Assembly: GCA_036404835.1 (NCBI GenBank) | Contig: DASWYT010000146.1 | Coordinates: 1-27,313 of the forward strand | Length of the DNA stretch: 27,313 nt | From: Alphaproteobacteria bacterium | GTDB lineage: Bacteria; Pseudomonadota; Alphaproteobacteria; Micavibrionales; SZUA-601 | Direction of reading: 5' to 3' | Translations under genes and position numbers: made by a program | Shown here: positions 68 to 24,198 of the stretch, piece by piece | Layout of the letters: each line of letters opens with the position of its first letter | How positions within the stretch are numbered: the first letter of the stretch is position 1 | Notes under the pieces: generated by a model | Told to the model about the DNA's origin: nothing | Database searches by the model: none | The model's input: the letters and a program-made list of their open reading frames with translations, nothing else

Positions 68-89
68 TATGCTTGACCGCTCAAGCATA
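68..89. repeat. 9-bp perfect inverted repeat overlapping the transposase -35 box (candidate operator)
   Basis: TATGCTTGA-CCGC-TCAAGCATA. Confidence 0.7.
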
Positions 90-101
90 GTGTACTATAC
101 T
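73..101 (+). promoter_or_regulatory. sigma70 promoter of the transposase, probably leaderless
   Basis: TTGACC (73-78), 17 nt, TATACT (96-101), 6 nt, then ATG at 108. Confidence 0.7.
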
Positions 102-107
102 GATCCC

Positions 108-923
108 ATGAACCGGAAGTCTACCGCAGAACGCGCCAAGATACTTCAGTTGCTAGTCGAGGGTAATTCCCTCCGGGCGACCAGCCGGATTGCTGACTGC
201 TCTATTAACACCGTCTACAAGCTGTTCGCCGATGCCGGTGAAGCATGTAACTGGTACCAAGACCAGGTTCTACGTAATCTGACCTGCCAGCGGATAGAGG
301 TCGACGAGATATGGTCCTTTGTTTATGCGCGTCGCCAGAACGTCAGACCTGATATGGAAGTACCCGCTGGTGATATCTGGACCTGGACCGCTCTATGCCC
401 TGATACCAAGCTGATGGTCTCCTGGTACATCGGCAATCGTGACAGGGCAGCTGCTGAACAGTTTATGCTGGACCTGTGTCAGAGATTCCAGAACCGTATT
501 CAGCTCACCTCTGATGGCATGCCAGCCTATAAGGATGCGGTGGATAATGCCTTTGGCTCTGAAGTCGATTTTGCCATGTTAGTTAAGCAGTATAGCATTC
601 CAAAAGGGAAGCAACTAAGTGGTCCATATACCGGTGCTATACAAGAGCGTCGTATTGGTAACCCCGACATGTCAAAGGCCCGGACAACCTTCGTAGAGCG
701 TCACAACTTAACCATGCGTACCAATATCAAGCGGTTCACCAGAAGAACTAATGCTCATAGCAAAAAGATAGAAAACCACGCCTATGCTGTGGCATTGCAC
801 TGTATGTATTACAACTTCGTCCGCATACACAGTTCTCTAAAAGTAACCCCGGCCATGGCAGCCGGGGTGACCAATAAGCTCTGGTCTCTTCAGGACCTGG
901 TCGATATGATCGACAGCTATTAA
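108..923 (+). CDS. IS1-family DDE transposase, single ORF with N-terminal HTH and no zinc ribbon (ISMhu11-like)
   Basis: HTH-like EGNSLRATSRIADCSINTV; catalytic-type motifs RIEVDEIW, LTSDG, ERHNLTMR; C-terminal YNFVRIHSSLKVTPAMAAG. Start moved from 69 to 108 because ATG69 lies upstream of the -35 box. Confidence 0.88.
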   Translation: MNRKSTAERAKILQLLVEGNSLRATSRIADCSINTVYKLFADAGEACNWYQDQVLRNLTCQRIEVDEIWSFVYARRQNVRPDMEVPAGDIWTWTALCPDTKLMVSWYIGNRDRAAAEQFMLDLCQRFQNRIQLTSDGMPAYKDAVDNAFGSEVDFAMLVKQYSIPKGKQLSGPYTGAIQERRIGNPDMSKARTTFVERHNLTMRTNIKRFTRRTNAHSKKIENHAYAVALHCMYYNFVRIHSSLKVTPAMAAGVTNKLWSLQDLVDMIDSY

Positions 924-926
924 AAT

Positions 927-1256
927 CTATTTCTTACACTTTTTCTCTTTTTCTATGACCGTCAGATAATCCAATCGTTCATTTGCTGCTTTAGTGGCGT
1001 TTGTATAATTGGATTGTTTCGCCATGACGTTGAATGGGAACCACAGCAGACCATCGACTACATCGGCACCGGTCATGTCTTCCTTGTCCTGATTAACGCC
1101 ATCAATAACGGATTGAGCTTTCACCTTCTCCATTTTGATACCGGGACAGTCCAGGTACTCATCAGCACTTTTTGAAACCTGCAAGACATCATGACTGGCA
1201 CTATTGGCACAGGCTGATAGCAACAAGGCAGATACGATAATAAGGGGGTATTTCAT
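927..1256 (-). CDS. Small lipoprotein of unknown function (IS passenger)
   Basis: Signal peptide with lipobox LSAC; SD AGGAG at 1268-1264, 7 nt before the ATG; convergent with the transposase (3-nt gap). Confidence 0.8.
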   Translation of the reverse strand: MKYPLIIVSALLLSACANSASHDVLQVSKSADEYLDCPGIKMEKVKAQSVIDGVNQDKEDMTGADVVDGLLWFPFNVMAKQSNYTNATKAANERLDYLTVIEKEKKCKK

Positions 1257-1263
1257 ATTTTAG

Positions 1264-1381
1264 CTCCTCGCTCTGGTGATCGGGGAGTTAGAAAAACCCT
1301 ATGAGAGGTTGTGCTTGTCTTTACGTTCCCTTGCGGTTCGGCTGGACATACACAAGCACCTCCCCGACCAAGATCGAGGAG
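1264..1381 (-). ncRNA. Structured RNA resembling phage C4 antisense RNA, in the lipoprotein leader
   Basis: Helices 1264-1270/1375-1381, 1274-1277/1367-1370, 1281-1287/1360-1366 and 1311-1318/1352-1359; CCGCAAGG (GNRA) hairpin at 1336-1329; unpaired CUCAUAGGGUUUUUCUAA complementary to 1412-1430. Confidence 0.55.
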
Positions 1382-1416
1382 TGTTTTTTATTAACGACGA
1401 CACTGACGCCGCTCAT
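1321..1416 (-). CDS. Possible 31-aa leader peptide (MSGVSVVVNKKHSSILVGEVLVYVQPNRKGT)
   Basis: Open frame from ATG 1416 to TAA 1323-1321. The start codon lies in the 1412-1418 pairing site. Only a distant GGGGA as SD. Confidence 0.25.
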   Translation of the reverse strand: MSGVSVVVNKKHSSILVGEVLVYVQPNRKGT

Positions 1417-1457
1417 AGAGAGGTTTCTAATCCCCAAAGCCAGGGAAATCCCGGCTT
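1412..1457 (-). promoter_or_regulatory. Candidate C4 target site (a1/b1-like) preceded by a small hairpin
   Basis: Minus strand GGGGATTAGAAACCTCTCTATGAG (1435-1412) is complementary to 1305-1282; hairpin AAGCC-A-GGG-AAAT-CCC-GGCTT at 1437-1457. Confidence 0.5.
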
Positions 1458-8069: not shown

Positions 8070-8654
8070 TTATGAGGGAAGCTGATGGCGATTAAATTTC
8101 AGATTTGCAATGGCAGGCTTCCCATCCACATCAACCACATTGGCAAAACGTTTGTCTTTATAGATTGTTTCATTCTGGTTGAAATGCTGCAGAACCTCTG
8201 GTGTATAATCCAGTCCAACCAGATAAATCATGGCATTCACACCATTATCAGAAAAGAAATGACGCAGTTGAAGCTTGTTGGCTTCCTCTTTATCCCCACC
8301 GATGGATACTAGGAAGTCCATGAATTTCTCTGACTGGTCATTGAAAGCTTTTCTATCCTTCATCTGGCTACTTTTGATTGCATCTGTAAGCGGGTGCGAC
8401 AGGATAGTTTCACGCACTTTATAATCAACCTCGAAATGTGAACTACTATCCATATCTCTTATATCTTCAACTGTGATATCCGAAATATCCTGAACCAGCT
8501 TGTAACCTCTGACAAAACCATTGACGCCGCCCTTACTATCCCAGACAGATTGGAATTGTGGTGCGAGGTAATTAAAAGACTCCGCCCACTTGCCTTCGTT
8601 CTGAGTCTCGTAAAATGTGTAGACAAGTTTTTTGCGCTTTGCATGATTTGACAT
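8070..8654 (-). CDS. Hypothetical protein, possibly NTF2-like fold
   Basis: Open 194 codons with SD GGGAGA and its own promoter; more AT-rich than neighbours; N-terminal FY...GKWAESFNYL helix pattern. Confidence 0.7.
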   Translation of the reverse strand: MSNHAKRKKLVYTFYETQNEGKWAESFNYLAPQFQSVWDSKGGVNGFVRGYKLVQDISDITVEDIRDMDSSSHFEVDYKVRETILSHPLTDAIKSSQMKDRKAFNDQSEKFMDFLVSIGGDKEEANKLQLRHFFSDNGVNAMIYLVGLDYTPEVLQHFNQNETIYKDKRFANVVDVDGKPAIANLKFNRHQLPS

Positions 8655-9470: not shown

Positions 9471-9626
9471 TTACCTTTCATTAGCTTCCCAAAGAGAACG
9501 ACAGAAAGGATATGCAAAAAATATGCCGTCATTATGCGCTTTCACGCGTTTATCGACATCATCGGTTATACCGACGTAAAAACGGTCTACGTTACTGATA
9601 GATTTCAAAGTATAAACGTATTTCAT
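9471..9626 (-). pseudogene. Truncated GIY-YIG (UPF0213-like) nuclease gene
   Basis: Translates MKYVYTLKSISNVDRFYVGITDDVDKRVKAHNDG (YVY, YVG, R, HN motifs), then 17 unrelated residues to TAA. The C-terminal half with the metal-binding Glu is missing. Not in the ORF track (51 aa). Confidence 0.75.
9513..9527 (-). promoter_or_regulatory. sigma54 (-24/-12) promoter motif
   Basis: GGCATATTTTTTGCA on the minus strand, identical to 1875-1889; about 50 nt before ATG9464. Confidence 0.7.
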
Positions 9627-13364: not shown

Positions 13365-14684
13365 ATGAATACAACCAACAAACCGCCCGATCAGATTTTT
13401 GCAGGTCGTATCAACCAGGAAAAACTGGAAGAGCTGATCGCGCTGCATGAGGATTTCGTCAATGGCATCCGCGGTGGCAAACGCCTGGTTCTGCAGTTCA
13501 TGAATCTGTCCGGCCTGTCTTTTGCCCGCCGCAATTTAAGCGATGCCATCTTTGCCGGATCGGCTTTTATTCAGGCCGATCTGACCGGCGCGCTGTTTGA
13601 CCGTGCCAATCTATTCGGTTGCGATTTGCGTTATGCGATGCTTGAAGGGGCCAGTCTGAAAAAAGCAGATTTGCGTGGTGTCTGTGCCCGCGGTGCCCGC
13701 CTGAACGGTGCCGACATGTTGCTCGCCGACTTGCGTGAAGGCCAGATCCTGGTCAGTGAATTATCTCGTGAATTACAGGCTTTGTATGTCGAGATCGAAG
13801 CCCCCAGCAATCGTGGCCATGCCGATTTTTCCAGTGCGAAATTATCCAAAGCGAAACTGACCGATGTCCAGGCCAGCGCAGCCGATTTCCGTGAAGCGGA
13901 AATGCAATCGGTCCGCATGCGTAATGCCAACGTCCGTGGCGCGAATTTCGAAGGCGCCAATATGGAGAATATCGATCTGACCGGTGCCGATATGACCGGT
14001 GTCAATCTGCAGAATGCCAATATGATGGGCGCCGTGCTGGAACAGGTCAAAATGGACAATGCCAATCTGTCCGGTGTCGTCTATGATAAGAATTTAAAAC
14101 AGCTGGCCAATTTGCGTACCAGCCTGGACCAGTTGATTCAAATGCATACGCGTTGGGTGGCCACCGCCGGCCAGGAAGGCCAGGCACTGGATTTATCCGG
14201 CTATGATATGCGGACCGCCGCTGCGCATTTTCAAAAAGCGCGCCTGACCGCCGTCAAAGCCGAAAACGCCGTTTTCTTTGGCATGGACCTCGATGGCATT
14301 GAATTGCAATACTGCACTTTGCCGAATGCCGATTTCCGCAATTGCCGCATGAAAAATGCCGACTTCCGGGGCTCTGATCTCTCCGGCGCAAAATTCACCA
14401 AGGCCAATCTGGAGAATGCTAATTTCCAACCGCTCGTATTGGGTGGCGAACAGAAAATCGTCAATCTGAGCAATGCCAATCTGCGTTATTGTGATTTGCG
14501 CAATGCCAATCTGCGGTTTGCCGATCTGACCGGTGCCGATTTATCCTTTGCCTGGGTCGATGGCACTGATTTCCGCAACGCCGTCATGACCGATGTCCAG
14601 CTGGAAGGTGTCAATCTGCAGGATGCGCTGACTACTGCGCCACCATCCATCGATATTCCTTCTGAGAACAACGTTCAATCCTAA
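13365..14684 (+). CDS. Pentapeptide-repeat protein with two capped repeat modules
   Basis: Extensive A(D/N)(L/F)xx repeats; two caps, LEELIALHEDFVNGIRGGKRL and LDQLIQMHTRWVATAGQEGQAL. Confidence 0.92.
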   Translation: MNTTNKPPDQIFAGRINQEKLEELIALHEDFVNGIRGGKRLVLQFMNLSGLSFARRNLSDAIFAGSAFIQADLTGALFDRANLFGCDLRYAMLEGASLKKADLRGVCARGARLNGADMLLADLREGQILVSELSRELQALYVEIEAPSNRGHADFSSAKLSKAKLTDVQASAADFREAEMQSVRMRNANVRGANFEGANMENIDLTGADMTGVNLQNANMMGAVLEQVKMDNANLSGVVYDKNLKQLANLRTSLDQLIQMHTRWVATAGQEGQALDLSGYDMRTAAAHFQKARLTAVKAENAVFFGMDLDGIELQYCTLPNADFRNCRMKNADFRGSDLSGAKFTKANLENANFQPLVLGGEQKIVNLSNANLRYCDLRNANLRFADLTGADLSFAWVDGTDFRNAVMTDVQLEGVNLQDALTTAPPSIDIPSENNVQS

Positions 14685-20756: not shown

Positions 20757-22472
20757 TTAACTTTCAAACCTGGCCATCTGTTCCATCAGGAACGGGGTCA
20801 GTTCCGCCAGCATCGCCGGGCTGAAATCGAATTTGATCCCGGCTGTCTCATATAATTCAGGCAATGATTTGGTTCCCCCCAGAGCCAGAGCCGCTTTGTA
20901 CTGCGCGATAGTCTTGACCGGGTCACGCTGGTAATTGCGCCAGAGCTGCAGGGCCCCTAATTGCGCAATCGCATATTCGATATAATAGAACGGGTCTTCA
21001 AAGACATGGCCCTGTTTCTGCCATTGCGTCCGGTATCCCGGTGTAAACTCGCTGTAATCCACACCTTCGACAGAGAAACGTCTGGCAATCGCATGCCAGG
21101 CATCGTTCCGTTCTTCCGGTGTCATCTCCGGTTTCAGGTAAAACTCATGCTGGATCGCATCGATCTGGGCCATCCAGGGGAACATGACCAGGATAAAGGA
21201 GATAAATTCTTCCTGCGCCCGTTTGCATTCTTCCGTATCACTGAAAAAGACCGGCCATTGATCAAAGGCGAATAATTCCATGGTCATCGAAGCCACTTCG
21301 GCGATTTCCATACCGACAACCTTATAAGCGCCTAACGGTAATCTGCTTTTCAGTATGTCATGCGTCGCATGGCCGGCTTCGTGAATGAATGTTGATGCAT
21401 CATCGACAGTGCTGGTGGCATTGGCAAACATAAAGGCCACATGCGATTCATTCATCGATGCATTATAGGCTCCCGGACGCTTATGCGGACGCGACGCCAG
21501 ATCGAGACGGTCCATATCACGCTGGGCACGTACCACATCACCGAACATCGGATCAATCGCATCCAGCACGGCAATGCCTTTATCCACCATATCATCCGCC
21601 CCATCAAAGGCTTTCAAAGCCGGACGACCGAACGTATCACAAGCCAGGTCCCACGGCTTTAGCACATCCAGTTTCATCTGCCCGGCGCGTTTCTTATTCA
21701 TGTGCGCCAGGATCGGCAGGATATGTTTTTCTACAGCCTCATGGAATTTATAACAATCTTCCGGCGTATAGTCGAAACGCAAATAAGCGTCATGCTGGTA
21801 ATCACGAAAATTCTTGTAACCGGCATTCAGGGCCATTTGATGACGTTTTTTGACCATCTGGTCAAAGATATCATCGAACGTCTCTTTATCCTGCAGACGG
21901 CGGGCATTGATTGCGCGCCACGCCTCTTCCCGCTTGGCACGATCCGGCCAGAACAGGCGCTGGTTGGCCTGTGGCAATGTCATGGTCTCACCATCCAGTA
22001 CCACACTCATAGCACCACGGACTTCATTAGTCTGGCTGACCAGTTGCATCAGTTCCGTTTGCAGCGGCACATTCTCGCTGCGGAACATGGATGCTTCCTG
22101 TTTCAGGCGACGGAATAACAAACGTTCAGCCTCATCCTGCGGTTGCTCGATAAACGGGCTGGCCAGGATTTTCTGGTTGATCGCATTGCCCCATTCGGAC
22201 AATTGCGGCGAAATAAAGGCGACGTAATCATCATAGGCTTTTTTAGCAGCTTCATCATGCGTATACCGGCTGTTACGGACATAGCGCCACATTTCTTCTT
22301 CATTCACAGCCGCGCCAAACTCGGATTCATCACGCATAAATTTATCAAAATCATCGCGTGTGGAAATATCGCGCTCCAGCAATTGTTGCGCATAAGGCGC
22401 CAATGTCTCCCAGTTATCGATCTTTAAATCGACAGGCAGGAACTGGCGTTGCAGCGGCTTGATGTCCAACAT
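20757..22472 (-). CDS. pepF: M3B oligoendopeptidase F family, copy 1
   Basis: FIHEAGH, EVASMTME, KRPGAYN, HVFEDPFYYIEY. Confidence 0.92.
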   Translation of the reverse strand: MLDIKPLQRQFLPVDLKIDNWETLAPYAQQLLERDISTRDDFDKFMRDESEFGAAVNEEEMWRYVRNSRYTHDEAAKKAYDDYVAFISPQLSEWGNAINQKILASPFIEQPQDEAERLLFRRLKQEASMFRSENVPLQTELMQLVSQTNEVRGAMSVVLDGETMTLPQANQRLFWPDRAKREEAWRAINARRLQDKETFDDIFDQMVKKRHQMALNAGYKNFRDYQHDAYLRFDYTPEDCYKFHEAVEKHILPILAHMNKKRAGQMKLDVLKPWDLACDTFGRPALKAFDGADDMVDKGIAVLDAIDPMFGDVVRAQRDMDRLDLASRPHKRPGAYNASMNESHVAFMFANATSTVDDASTFIHEAGHATHDILKSRLPLGAYKVVGMEIAEVASMTMELFAFDQWPVFFSDTEECKRAQEEFISFILVMFPWMAQIDAIQHEFYLKPEMTPEERNDAWHAIARRFSVEGVDYSEFTPGYRTQWQKQGHVFEDPFYYIEYAIAQLGALQLWRNYQRDPVKTIAQYKAALALGGTKSLPELYETAGIKFDFSPAMLAELTPFLMEQMARFES

Positions 22473-22476
22473 GTTA

Positions 22477-24198
22477 TTATTCCTTATTCTTGTAACACGC
22501 TAATCGTTCCGTCAGGAAAGGTACCAGATCAGCAATCATGGCTTCACTGAAATCGAATTTAATTCCGGCTATTCGATAAAGCTCTGGCAGGGACTTGGTG
22601 TAACCCAAAGCCAATGCTTCTTTATACTGTTTGATGGTTTTTTGCGGGTCGTGCAGATAATTCCGCCAGATCTGCAAAGCTCCCATCTGGGAAATCAGAT
22701 ATTCGATATAATAAAATGGCGTACCAAAGAAATGACTGACATTGTGCCAACGCGTACGGTGAATCTCGGGATAAGAACCCAGATCAATCCCCGCCGGTGT
22801 AAAACCCTTCAATTGATCGTACCACAGATCATTCCGGTCTTCCGATGTCATGTCCAGATGGGTATAGATTTCGTGCTGGAATAAATCACCCTGTGCCACA
22901 GGCAGGAATTTCAACATCACCTCTTCCAGGAAATCTTCCTGGGCCCGTTCGCATTCTTCTGTATCGCTCAGGAAGATTGACCATTTATCAAAGACCAGCA
23001 ACTCCATGCTCATCGAAGCCAGTTCCGCCATCTCAATCGGCACCCGTTTATAGGCCTGCAACGGCAGGTCAACCGCCAATAAAGAATGCCCCGCATGCCC
23101 GGCTTCATGCACGAACATACGGACGTCATTCACTTTATCCGTGGTGTTCGCGAACATGAATGGCACATTCGTTTCCGGCAGGCCGCTATTATACGCACCC
23201 GGACGTTTATGCGGACGGGATGCGAGATCCAGACGGCCCATGTCACGCTGCAACCTGACAACATCACCGAAAAACGGATCAACGCCATCCAGCATGACGA
23301 GACCTTTTTCTAATAAATCATCGGAAGATGCAAAAACCTTCAAGGCCGGTCGGCCAAGCGGGTCGACCATCATATCCCAGGGCATCAATCTATCCAATTG
23401 CATTTGCTGGCTGCGTTTACGATACAAGTCAGTCACGAGCGGTGTGAAATGTTTCCGGATTGCCGCATGGAACGTCATGCAATCTTCCGGTGTATAATCG
23501 AAACGCTGCATGGCATCGAACTGGTAATCGCGGAAGTTCTTATAACCCGCATTCAAGGCGATCTGATGACGTTTTTTGACCATCTGATCGAAAATCGTAT
23601 CATATTTCTCTTTATCCTGCAGGCGGCGACCATGCATCGCATGCCAGGCTTTCTCACGCACAGCACGATCCGGACTATAGAAACGACCGGATAATTGTGG
23701 AATGGTCAGCGTTTCTCCATCCAGTTCGACCGTCATGGAACCACGCAATTTATCGCTATCGACGGATAATTGACGCAGCTCCGTCATCAACGGAATATTC
23801 TCGCTGCGGAACATTTTGTCGGCTGCTTTCATGCCGCGGAACATCAATCGTTCCGCTTCATCTCTCGGCTGATCGCTGAACGGGCTGGCCAAAAGTTTCT
23901 TCGTAAGTTTGTTACTCATTTCACTGGCAGCAGGCGTGATATTATTATTCATGTTGCTATAGGCATCCTGGGCTGCCTGGTCATTCGTATGTGTTGTCGT
24001 GCGAATGAAACGCCATGTACTCTCTTCCCCCAGGATACAAGATATTTCATTTATATCACGCTGGAATTGATCAAAATCGTCACGCGTGGAAATATCACGG
24101 CCCAGCAAGATCTGGAAATAAGGTTCGAGCGCCTTCCAATCCGTAACCTTGAAATCCGTTGGCAGGAAACGGCGTTGTAATGGCTCAATTTTTAACAT
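22477..24198 (-). CDS. pepF: M3B oligoendopeptidase F family, copy 2
   Basis: FVHEAGH, ELASMSME, KRPGAYN, HFFGTPFYYIEY. Confidence 0.92.
   Translation of the reverse strand: MLKIEPLQRRFLPTDFKVTDWKALEPYFQILLGRDISTRDDFDQFQRDINEISCILGEESTWRFIRTTTHTNDQAAQDAYSNMNNNITPAASEMSNKLTKKLLASPFSDQPRDEAERLMFRGMKAADKMFRSENIPLMTELRQLSVDSDKLRGSMTVELDGETLTIPQLSGRFYSPDRAVREKAWHAMHGRRLQDKEKYDTIFDQMVKKRHQIALNAGYKNFRDYQFDAMQRFDYTPEDCMTFHAAIRKHFTPLVTDLYRKRSQQMQLDRLMPWDMMVDPLGRPALKVFASSDDLLEKGLVMLDGVDPFFGDVVRLQRDMGRLDLASRPHKRPGAYNSGLPETNVPFMFANTTDKVNDVRMFVHEAGHAGHSLLAVDLPLQAYKRVPIEMAELASMSMELLVFDKWSIFLSDTEECERAQEDFLEEVMLKFLPVAQGDLFQHEIYTHLDMTSEDRNDLWYDQLKGFTPAGIDLGSYPEIHRTRWHNVSHFFGTPFYYIEYLISQMGALQIWRNYLHDPQKTIKQYKEALALGYTKSLPELYRIAGIKFDFSEAMIADLVPFLTERLACYKNKE

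Follow-up and report, generated by a model that had tools for sequence, protein, structure and literature searches.

Results

A structured leader precedes a lipoprotein gene

The window analysed here comprises 27,313 nucleotides (nt) of contig DASWYT010000146.1, which belongs to an alphaproteobacterial assembly of the order Micavibrionales (GCA_036404835.1). Near its left end, the minus strand carries a lipoprotein gene (Table 1) preceded by the subject of this report, a 5' leader at positions 1257-1457. An IS1-family transposase gene (69-923, plus strand) converges on the lipoprotein gene and ends 4 nt from its stop codon. The lipoprotein encoded by 927-1256 matched no Pfam family, and its C-terminus is intact by comparison with an orthologue. 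An earlier note on this DNA, made from its letters, had described the leader as an RNA switch of the phage C4 type that controls the lipoprotein gene from within an insertion sequence (IS). Our analysis supports its central idea, a structured leader with two competing folds that gate the Shine-Dalgarno (SD) region of the lipoprotein gene.

The minimum free energy (MFE) fold of 1460-1245 on the minus strand is a long nested stem of -84.1 kcal/mol, whose outer 7 base pairs (bp) connect CUCCUCG (1381-1375) with the SD region CGAGGAG (1269-1263). Shuffled sequences average -58.8 kcal/mol (standard deviation 4.3), which corresponds to z = -5.83 with none of 200 shuffles folding as well, and the opposite strand folds worse (z = -4.1). 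This stem had been proposed in the earlier note, together with two long-range pairings (in plus-strand letters, CTATGAG at 1299-1305 with CTCATAG at 1412-1418, and TTAGAAA at 1288-1294 with TTTCTAA at 1424-1430), a competing helix (GGGGA at 1282-1286 with TCCCC at 1431-1435) and a tetraloop tip, CCGCAAGG, at 1329-1336. All of these are present, with the minus strand as the RNA, and the arm that provides one side of the competing helix is conserved and covaries in the 48 copies described below. Two details had to be amended. The complementary stretch assigned to an 18-nt loop is real, but it consists of the loop of hairpin P3 plus the single-stranded joint between P3 and helix P1; and the helices listed do belong to the element, but a hairpin at its 5' end (1457-1437) and another with a pseudoknot (1411-1395) have to be added to them.

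The leader is a copy of a widespread family

Sequence comparison places the leader in a genuine family, as indicated by copies in the same genus and at the level of the class. In a same-genus genome (G001), a leader with 71% DNA identity (81% column identity) precedes a different lipoprotein that is 24% identical to that of the window (E 0.074), whereas in a same-order genome (G027) the leader stands before an orthologue of the window's lipoprotein. The lipoprotein family is itself widespread, and the leader was found at only one of 29 loci encoding relatives, namely the same-order one. Since the leader is kept before dissimilar genes and relatives of the lipoprotein outside the order lack it, we regard it as a portable module and reject the possibility that it is specific to this lipoprotein family. 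No second copy of the leader occurs in the window's own assembly, which is 81% complete.

For a wider search we used a covariance model, R1, built from 28 copies on the structure in which the arm is paired with the core (the arm-locked structure). R1 has matches in 109 of 151 genomes of the order, more than 300 in total and with a maximum of 12 in one genome. Among other families of the class, 29 of 150 also contain the element (28 of 149 without the unpublished genome G190, which the first tally includes). The window copy scores 73.1 bits over model positions 1-156 (E 1.8e-14, whole genome), a match that is partly by construction as this copy is among the 28 seeds. A blastn comparison of a typical copy with plasmids and phages gave no match. 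In one genome, two tandem copies lie about 240 nt apart (L038, 1196-1348 and 1435-1583, plus strand), an arrangement that recalls the five tandem copies of the small RNA (sRNA) sRNA-Xcc1 in Xylella fastidiosa Temecula1 (PMC12189769).

Genes downstream of 48 copies, sorted by simple heuristics, comprise 18 lipoproteins, 11 proteins with an N-terminal hydrophobic segment, nine with a membrane segment elsewhere and 10 that are apparently soluble. The few nameable products include DUF2846 lipoproteins, GIY-YIG, Sel1, ankyrin and Hsp70-like proteins, and anti-phage genes stand directly behind three copies: two encode UzuA of the Uzume defence system (E 2e-91) and one an EcoRI-type adenine methyltransferase (E 3e-130). 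As to the window's lipoprotein, it forms an uncharacterised family with proteins P0002-P0027, marked by an invariant lipobox cysteine, two more cysteines and the motif DGLLWFPFN; in longer members, the C-terminus is formed by a SHOCT domain (PF09851). Lipoproteins of a type distantly similar to it are also encoded behind other leader copies (L004, L070 and L055).

Architecture of the element

Compared with one another, 33 copies reveal one conserved composite element. From 5' to 3' it consists of hairpin P0, a G-rich hairpin with box a1, box b1, a spacer hairpin, the anti-P1 strand, a core (P1, P2 and P3), a short tail and, usually, a terminator (Table 1). Many copies have a sigma-70-like promoter upstream, where relatives read TTGAC-17-TAnnnT. 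Nearly all have a hairpin at the P0 position, though its sequence differs between copies.

Pairing was assessed in 48 copies aligned to R1 (alignment A7). The local 4-bp stem of the a1 hairpin is paired in 99% of cases, the outer P2 stem in 99.6%, the anti-P1 hairpin in 93.7%, P1 in 92.8% with six pairs doubly changed, and the P3 stem in 90%. The spacer stem (92% paired) and the pseudoknot formed by its loop (82.5%) are doubly changed at 6/6 pairs each. Many double changes also mark the pairing of a1 with its partner box a' in the core; for example, columns 11:272 read UA in 18 copies, AU in 16, GC in six and CG in three. Box b1 and its partner b' are hypervariable yet complementary (columns 26:260: UA 18, CG 13, AU 11, GC 4), and b1 already differs in the same-genus and same-order copies. 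Paralogues within one genome likewise carry differing a and b boxes.

Table 1. Parts of the leader, its gene and the anti-phage genes found behind other copies
Feature	Position	Strand	Remarks
P0	1437..1457	-	5' hairpin abutting the arm; formed in the MFE fold
a1 hairpin	1420..1435	-	5' half of the arm; GGGG (1435-1432), loop with box a1 UUAGAAA (1430-1424), CCUC
Box b1	1412..1418	-	3' half of the arm; CUAUGAG, complementary to the P3 loop
Spacer hairpin	1395..1411	-	Loop AGUGU (1404-1400) forms a pseudoknot with ACACU (1384-1380)
Anti-P1 / anti-SD strand	1370..1381	-	CUCCUCGAUCUU; pairs in fold I with the P1 5' strand and in fold II with the SD region (1263-1269)
P1 5' strand	1360..1369	-	GGUCGGGGAG; start of the C4/Xcc1-like core; the sRNA-Xcc1 model aligns from here
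P2 hairpin	1311..1359	-	Tip CCGCAAGG at 1336-1329; 'type B' variant with GUAUGUCCA...UAAAG
P3 hairpin	1295..1310	-	Loop with box b' CUCAUAG (1305-1299)
Box a'	1288..1298	-	GGUUUUUCUAA in the P3-P1 joint; complementary to a1; same position as a' of P1 C4
P1 3' strand	1278..1287	-	CUCCCCGAUC; CCCC (1285-1282) also partners GGGG of the arm
ACCA tail	1274..1277	-	Directly after P1, like the RCCA end of tRNA
Shine-Dalgarno region	1263..1269	-	CGAGGAG; blocked by 1375-1381 in fold II, free in fold I
Start codon	1256	-	ATG of the lipoprotein gene
Lipoprotein gene (cargo)	927..1256	-	109 residues; lipobox LSAC, two further conserved Cys, motif LWFPFN
Anti-phage genes	L051:652-1455	-	Behind leader copies
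	L058:1040-1999	+
	L084:1708-2898	+

Two exclusive folds are supported by covariation

Since the arm is complementary to a', to b' and to the CCCC of the P1 3' strand, the leader can adopt two mutually exclusive folds. Fold I consists of the arm paired with its target in the core, the spacer hairpin, the anti-P1 hairpin and P2; fold II consists of the a1 hairpin, the spacer hairpin with its pseudoknot, P1, P2 and P3. Both are supported by the homologous leaders. For fold I, 92.4% of cells are paired and 36 of 45 pairs are doubly changed, with a covariation score of 0.454 (shuffled 0.202, with 0/500 reaching the observed value; slid controls at most 0.104). The corresponding values for fold II are 92.2% and 34 of 40, with a score of 0.330 (shuffled 0.183, again 0/500; slid controls at most 0.093). 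The support for fold II is not an artefact of the fit, because P1, P3, the a1 hairpin and the pseudoknot are absent from model R1. Covariation thus supports selection on both folds.

An alignment-free duplex test agrees with fold I. Arms bind their own targets with -32.3 kcal/mol, the targets of other copies with -21.4 and shuffled ones with -13.4; when repeated on the 48 copies, the test gave -32.6 for the own arm vs -22.4. With a wide target slice, of which only the ranking was used, the own target was the best partner for 14 of 16 arms. Copy L039 carries a three-way change, with GAGG in both the arm and the P1 5' strand and CCUC opposite them in the P1 3' strand, which is what two alternative partners for one strand predict. 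G-U pairs are frequent (in the anti-P1 helix, UG occurs in 27, 34 and 33 of 48 copies), and the minus strand is therefore the folding strand.

Thermodynamic predictions for the window copy distinguish the complete leader from shorter transcripts. The full leader folds as II (-85.7 kcal/mol, compared to -80.3 for a forced fold I), with a probability of about 0.05 that the SD is unpaired, whereas transcripts truncated at 1275 or 1262 fold as I and leave the SD free. By these models, fold II is the ground state of the full window leader by about 2-5 kcal/mol.

The expression platform is a terminator or the SD

In 40 of the 48 copies, the core is followed by a hairpin of 9-13 bp (-10 to -22 kcal/mol) and a run of three to five U; this terminator hairpin starts within the last 4 nt of the P1 3' strand (40/48). 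In such terminator-type copies, the SD of the next gene lies 40-55 nt past the core, and the arm-locked fold is the MFE structure of the whole leader, exceeding the C4-like fold by about 6-35 kcal/mol. Fold I keeps the terminator intact, whereas forcing P1 to form cuts the terminator stem to 6-7 bp, so that fold I looks like the OFF state in these predictions. The window copy, the same-genus copy L004 and L046 lack a terminator hairpin over the P1 3' strand. Here the SD, located 13-20 nt after the core, takes the place of the terminator, and for the window copy fold I is predicted to be permissive and fold II closed.

The core resembles sRNA-Xcc1

At gathering thresholds, Rfam returned nothing for the leader region. 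The best match at E <= 10 was sRNA-Xcc1 (RF02221), which aligned with all of its model positions 1-87 to 1368-1271 on the minus strand (24.6 bits, E 0.062) and stayed below its gathering threshold of 53 bits. The same-genus and same-order leaders match in the same register with 30.8 and 42.3 bits. Using a relaxed E value, full-length matches were obtained in 35 of 61 relatives, two of them above the cut-off, and scores within the order grade up to 57.9 bits. The copy with this highest score, L036, likewise carries an arm upstream of the core that is complementary to its P3 loop and joint (-33.3 kcal/mol vs -22.4 for shuffled sequences, standard deviation 3.1), and for this reason the arm is probably a general, so far unmodelled part of sRNA-Xcc1 loci. 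The earlier note had considered the arrangement new. For the core this does not apply, as Rfam already lists it as an sRNA; the extended leader does lie outside the Rfam description.

sRNA-Xcc1 was cloned as a discrete 88-nt species from Xanthomonas campestris 8004 (PMC2996969). Published copies on mobile DNA lie in Xanthomonas integron cassettes, where symE is downstream (bioRxiv 10.1101/2025.06.18.660453), and in APSE phages, where an ORF6N gene is downstream (10.1101/2020.03.17.996009); sRNA-Xcc1 has also been located beside isrK and C4 in a Xylella prophage (PMC12189769).

The layout is that of C4, without a downstream target

A cmscan of 1100-1650 on both strands gave no match at E <= 10 to C4 (RF01695), c4-2, c4-a1b1 (RF03163) or isrK; on phage P1, the same procedure recovered C4 with 68.8 bits and c4-a1b1 with 51.0 bits. 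The order of elements proposed in the earlier note as C4-like nevertheless agrees with that of the P1 c4 leader. In the annotation of P1 immI, promoters are followed by a1, by b1 7 nt on, by a 66-nt spacer, the 77-nt c4 and a2/b2 at the start of icd. The core of the window copy is built like C4: its outer stem encloses two hairpins, the second of which has b' in its loop, a' occupies the 3' joint, and an ACC tail follows. The upstream a1-b1 arrangement is present as well (1430-1424 with 1294-1288, and 1418-1412 with 1305-1299). An ACC tail is also part of the Rfam consensus of both C4 and sRNA-Xcc1. For C4 itself, cleavage by RNase P at the base of P1 has been described, and a'/b' are its variable specificity loops (PMC5320573). 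P1 begins with GGU in the window copy, where RNase P may likewise cut at the 5' end of P1.

What we could not find is a second target. Pairing of the a'b' region with the 160 nt downstream in the same copy reaches -19.1 kcal/mol, compared to -18.4 with the downstream regions of other copies (standard deviation 4.0; 48 copies), and a search for further sites with both an a and a b box, carried out in the window's assembly (G000) and in the complete genome G031, which has a single copy, recovered only the arm itself. The sole partner of a'/b' is the leader's own upstream arm. Membership in C4 is hence not supported, given that there is neither a match to the C4 clan nor a downstream target, and neither is the C4/CI mechanism assumed in the earlier note: C4 and CI target a site at or close to the start of the gene they regulate, and no cognate a2/b2 was found downstream or in the genomes searched.

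The neighbouring transposase gene and other features of the window

The transposase matches the NCBIfam IS1 model with 80.3 bits, below its cut-off of 100, as well as Pfam DDE_Tnp_IS1, and its region occurs once in the assembly. Positions 1-68 contain no IS1-like inverted repeat that pairs with anything near 1845-1869, although the contig starts 68 nt before the transposase gene and the left end is out of view. The claim that the leader sits inside an IS is not supported: 1-68 contains no IS1-like left end, the IS is single-copy, and the module was found hundreds of times with its own promoter and without a transposase. In particular, none is adjacent to the same-genus and same-order copies. 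A companion reading, in which an IS and its cargo end at 1869, is neither proven nor needed, as the putative right end at about 1845-1869 has no inverted partner in 1-68.

Several other features of the window deserve mention. Positions 1875-1901 and 9501-9527 form a 27-nt inverted repeat (81% complementary) with GGCATATTTTTTGCA, each upstream of a gene, which a further note on this DNA had labelled a sigma-54 motif. Tandem paralogous genes for M3-family oligoendopeptidases (20757-22472 and 22477-24198, minus strand) account for the direct-repeat families D1, D3 and D7, with a spacing of 1726 nt. The open reading frame at 13365-14684 (plus strand) contains many short direct repeats (D2, D4 and D5) with 15- and 45-nt periods, which would be expected of a pentapeptide-repeat protein, and the isocitrate dehydrogenase of the window matches the ICDH_alpha equivalog.

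Discussion

We consider it probable, at roughly 0.7, that the leader at 1257-1457 is a copy of a multi-copy family of self-pairing leaders of the C4 / sRNA-Xcc1 class, and that in this copy two exclusive folds gate the SD. Its core folds like the C4 RNA of phage P1, about 60 nt downstream of an arm, GGGG-a1-b1, in the same transcript. In fold I, the arm pairs with the 3' third of the core while the P1 5' strand is kept in the local anti-P1 hairpin; in fold II, the C4-like core forms and leaves the arm free. An extension of P1 in the window copy would pair the anti-SD CUCCUCG with the SD, such that fold II blocks translation and fold I permits it. The growing transcript is expected to favor fold I and the full leader fold II, and the partition between the two may set the output of the lipoprotein gene. 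Membership in the family, the two folds, the exchange of platforms and the absence of a downstream target are all documented by the comparisons above.

Several observations weigh against this interpretation. Among the Rfam matches, that of the window copy is the weakest, and the copy is atypical of its family. The sign of control is apparently opposite in terminator- and SD-type copies, and at least one of the two output readings may be wrong. In terminator-type copies, fold I leads by about 6-35 kcal/mol, which makes it hard to see how fold II would form there. A promoter scan upstream of P0 in the window copy found no convincing sigma-70 promoter. No RNA run containing the locus was found, and only soil-metagenome DNA runs contain it; a 155-nt contig from a wastewater run labelled RNA-Seq is less than 90% alike over 1340-1383 (the anti-SD and the 5' part of P1), and it probably derives from the copy of a relative, which says nothing on expression at the window locus. 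Finally, alignment A7 was fitted to fold I, so the figures for fold I lean on this fit and on the kinship of the copies, and the shuffle statistics overstate significance for the same two reasons.

Could an outside signal, rather than the RNA itself, set the balance between the folds? A leader of the riboswitch, protein-binding or thermometer type would account for a conserved sensor with interchangeable platforms (terminator or SD), which is a hallmark of riboswitches, and for the invariant internal loops of P2, which are present in both folds. We nonetheless judge this quite unlikely. The downstream genes, which range from lipoproteins and membrane proteins to Uzume, methyltransferase, Ank and Sel1 proteins, have neither a pathway nor a ligand in common, and no Rfam riboswitch matched. 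Moreover, the a and b boxes are the most variable parts of the element and differ between paralogues in one genome, as would suit specificity determinants and not a ligand pocket.

Alternatively, the element could be a free-standing gene for a trans-acting sRNA with targets elsewhere, placed next to the lipoprotein gene by accident. The cloning of sRNA-Xcc1 as a discrete 88-nt RNA (PMC2996969) fits this view, as do the terminators at the end of most copies and the strongly conserved loops of P2, which could bind a protein such as Hfq. However, the window copy has the SD inside its structure and no terminator, and in other copies the next gene follows at a fixed distance of 40-55 nt past the core, too close for a promoter to fit in between. 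The genomes searched contained no second a/b site, and published sRNA-Xcc1 copies stand directly upstream of symE and of the ORF6N gene (bioRxiv 10.1101/2025.06.18.660453; 10.1101/2020.03.17.996009). An independent sRNA gene is thus very unlikely.

Highly improbable is a classical C4/CI switch, in which a'/b' of the processed core would pair with a2/b2 at the ribosome-binding site of the lipoprotein gene and block it. While the core and the sequence preceding it are arranged as in P1 c4, the downstream pairing is no better with the cognate sequence than with those of other copies, the same comparison for the arm gives -32.6 vs -22.4 kcal/mol, and the search with both boxes in the window's assembly and one complete single-copy genome returned the arm alone. 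In addition, the core and the ATG of the window copy are separated by only about 20 nt, which are used by the extension of P1.

Lastly, despite its inverted-repeat character, the nearby transposase gene and the mobile-looking contexts of other copies (e.g. AlpA-like and replication genes in L003), the element is almost certainly not a DNA-level repeat such as a miniature inverted-repeat transposable element, an IS end, a recombination site or a chance palindrome, for many of its conserved G-U pairs have no counterpart on the opposite strand, where they turn into A-C mismatches, its orientation to the downstream gene and its order of promoter, leader, terminator and SD are constant, it is single-copy in its own assembly and no IS-like terminal repeat pairs with 1-68.

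Returning to a self-pairing leader with two folds, the finished C4-like RNA could also bind the arm of new transcripts in trans. An extension of this idea, which we think unlikely but worth stating, is a self-templating switch: the core RNA in fold II, with a'/b' exposed and maybe trimmed by RNase P, would bind the arm of nascent transcripts from its own copy only, block fold I and so pass on the fold it has itself adopted. In that case, every copy would act as a heritable and bistable ON/OFF controller, similar to phase variation and private to one envelope or defence gene, and the propagated state of the window copy would be the one with a closed SD (OFF). If so, the switches would stay independent through the divergence of boxes among the paralogues of a genome.

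Many genome annotations list sRNA-Xcc1 as a stand-alone 'virulence' sRNA, and C4 is usually seen as a peculiarity of phage immunity. The locus described here and its relatives suggest that both are faces of one widespread and portable control cassette, consisting of a promoter, a self-complementary leader, a C4-like core and then either a terminator or an SD. In Alphaproteobacteria with small genomes, hundreds of such copies are wired to genes for lipoproteins, membrane proteins, defence (Uzume, methyltransferase) and eukaryote-like repeat proteins. The window copy is a case in which the same sensor has been re-plugged from transcription termination to translation initiation. Given that a1/b1 are the only partner of a'/b' in this family and that a1/b1 of P1 have no settled function (the P1 annotation calls them 'putative' target sites), their role becomes directly testable here.

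Parallels to known systems differ in depth. In hok-type mRNAs, the SD is open or closed depending on whether the RNA is in a metastable fold adopted during transcription or in the different ground state of its full length; the likeness is one of working principle only, as the family described here has no separate antisense gene, and a toxic or exclusion role of the lipoprotein, as suggested in the earlier note, is hypothetical. The CI RNA of phage P4 is a C4-like RNA processed from a leader that pairs with an upstream sequence of the same transcription unit, with transcription termination as the outcome; P4 also has a downstream complementary site, and CI acts in trans on nascent phage transcripts. 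In phage P1 (L066, AF234172), the isrK model (RF01394) matches 8231-8312 with 35.1 bits (cut-off 50), overlapping the match to c4-a1b1. IsrK-type sRNAs and C4 leaders therefore look like one kind of element, and interplay between a short leader and a long transcript is known in this class, though our family has no isrK match. In Acinetobacter baumannii, the 'Group 1' C4-like sRNAs are multi-copy, chromosomal and processed from longer transcripts (PMC5320573). They match the C4 model, whereas the present family does not.

The Rfam entry for sRNA-Xcc1 covers the core alone, under the label of a trans-acting sRNA, and includes neither the 5' arm nor the pseudoknot hairpin, the anti-P1 strand or the expression platform. 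The comparison with C4 reveals further differences. Complementarity between arm and core is nearly continuous over about 28 nt (approximately -32 kcal/mol), in contrast to two boxes of 7-8 nt in C4, and it follows that a fold in cis competes with the C4 fold. P1 itself incorporates the output element, a terminator or SD, and the genes downstream are envelope and accessory genes and not phage-immunity genes of the icd/ant or kil type. In turn, the shared features are extensive: the P1 c4 leader likewise starts with a hairpin, next come a G-rich hairpin of 4 bp, whose 8-nt loop contains a1, and then b1, and in P1/P7 immI as in this family the core lies about 60 nt past the arm, with the a and b boxes as variable specificity determinants. 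Based on this common layout and the published description of C4, the statement that these leaders work like C4 is well founded.

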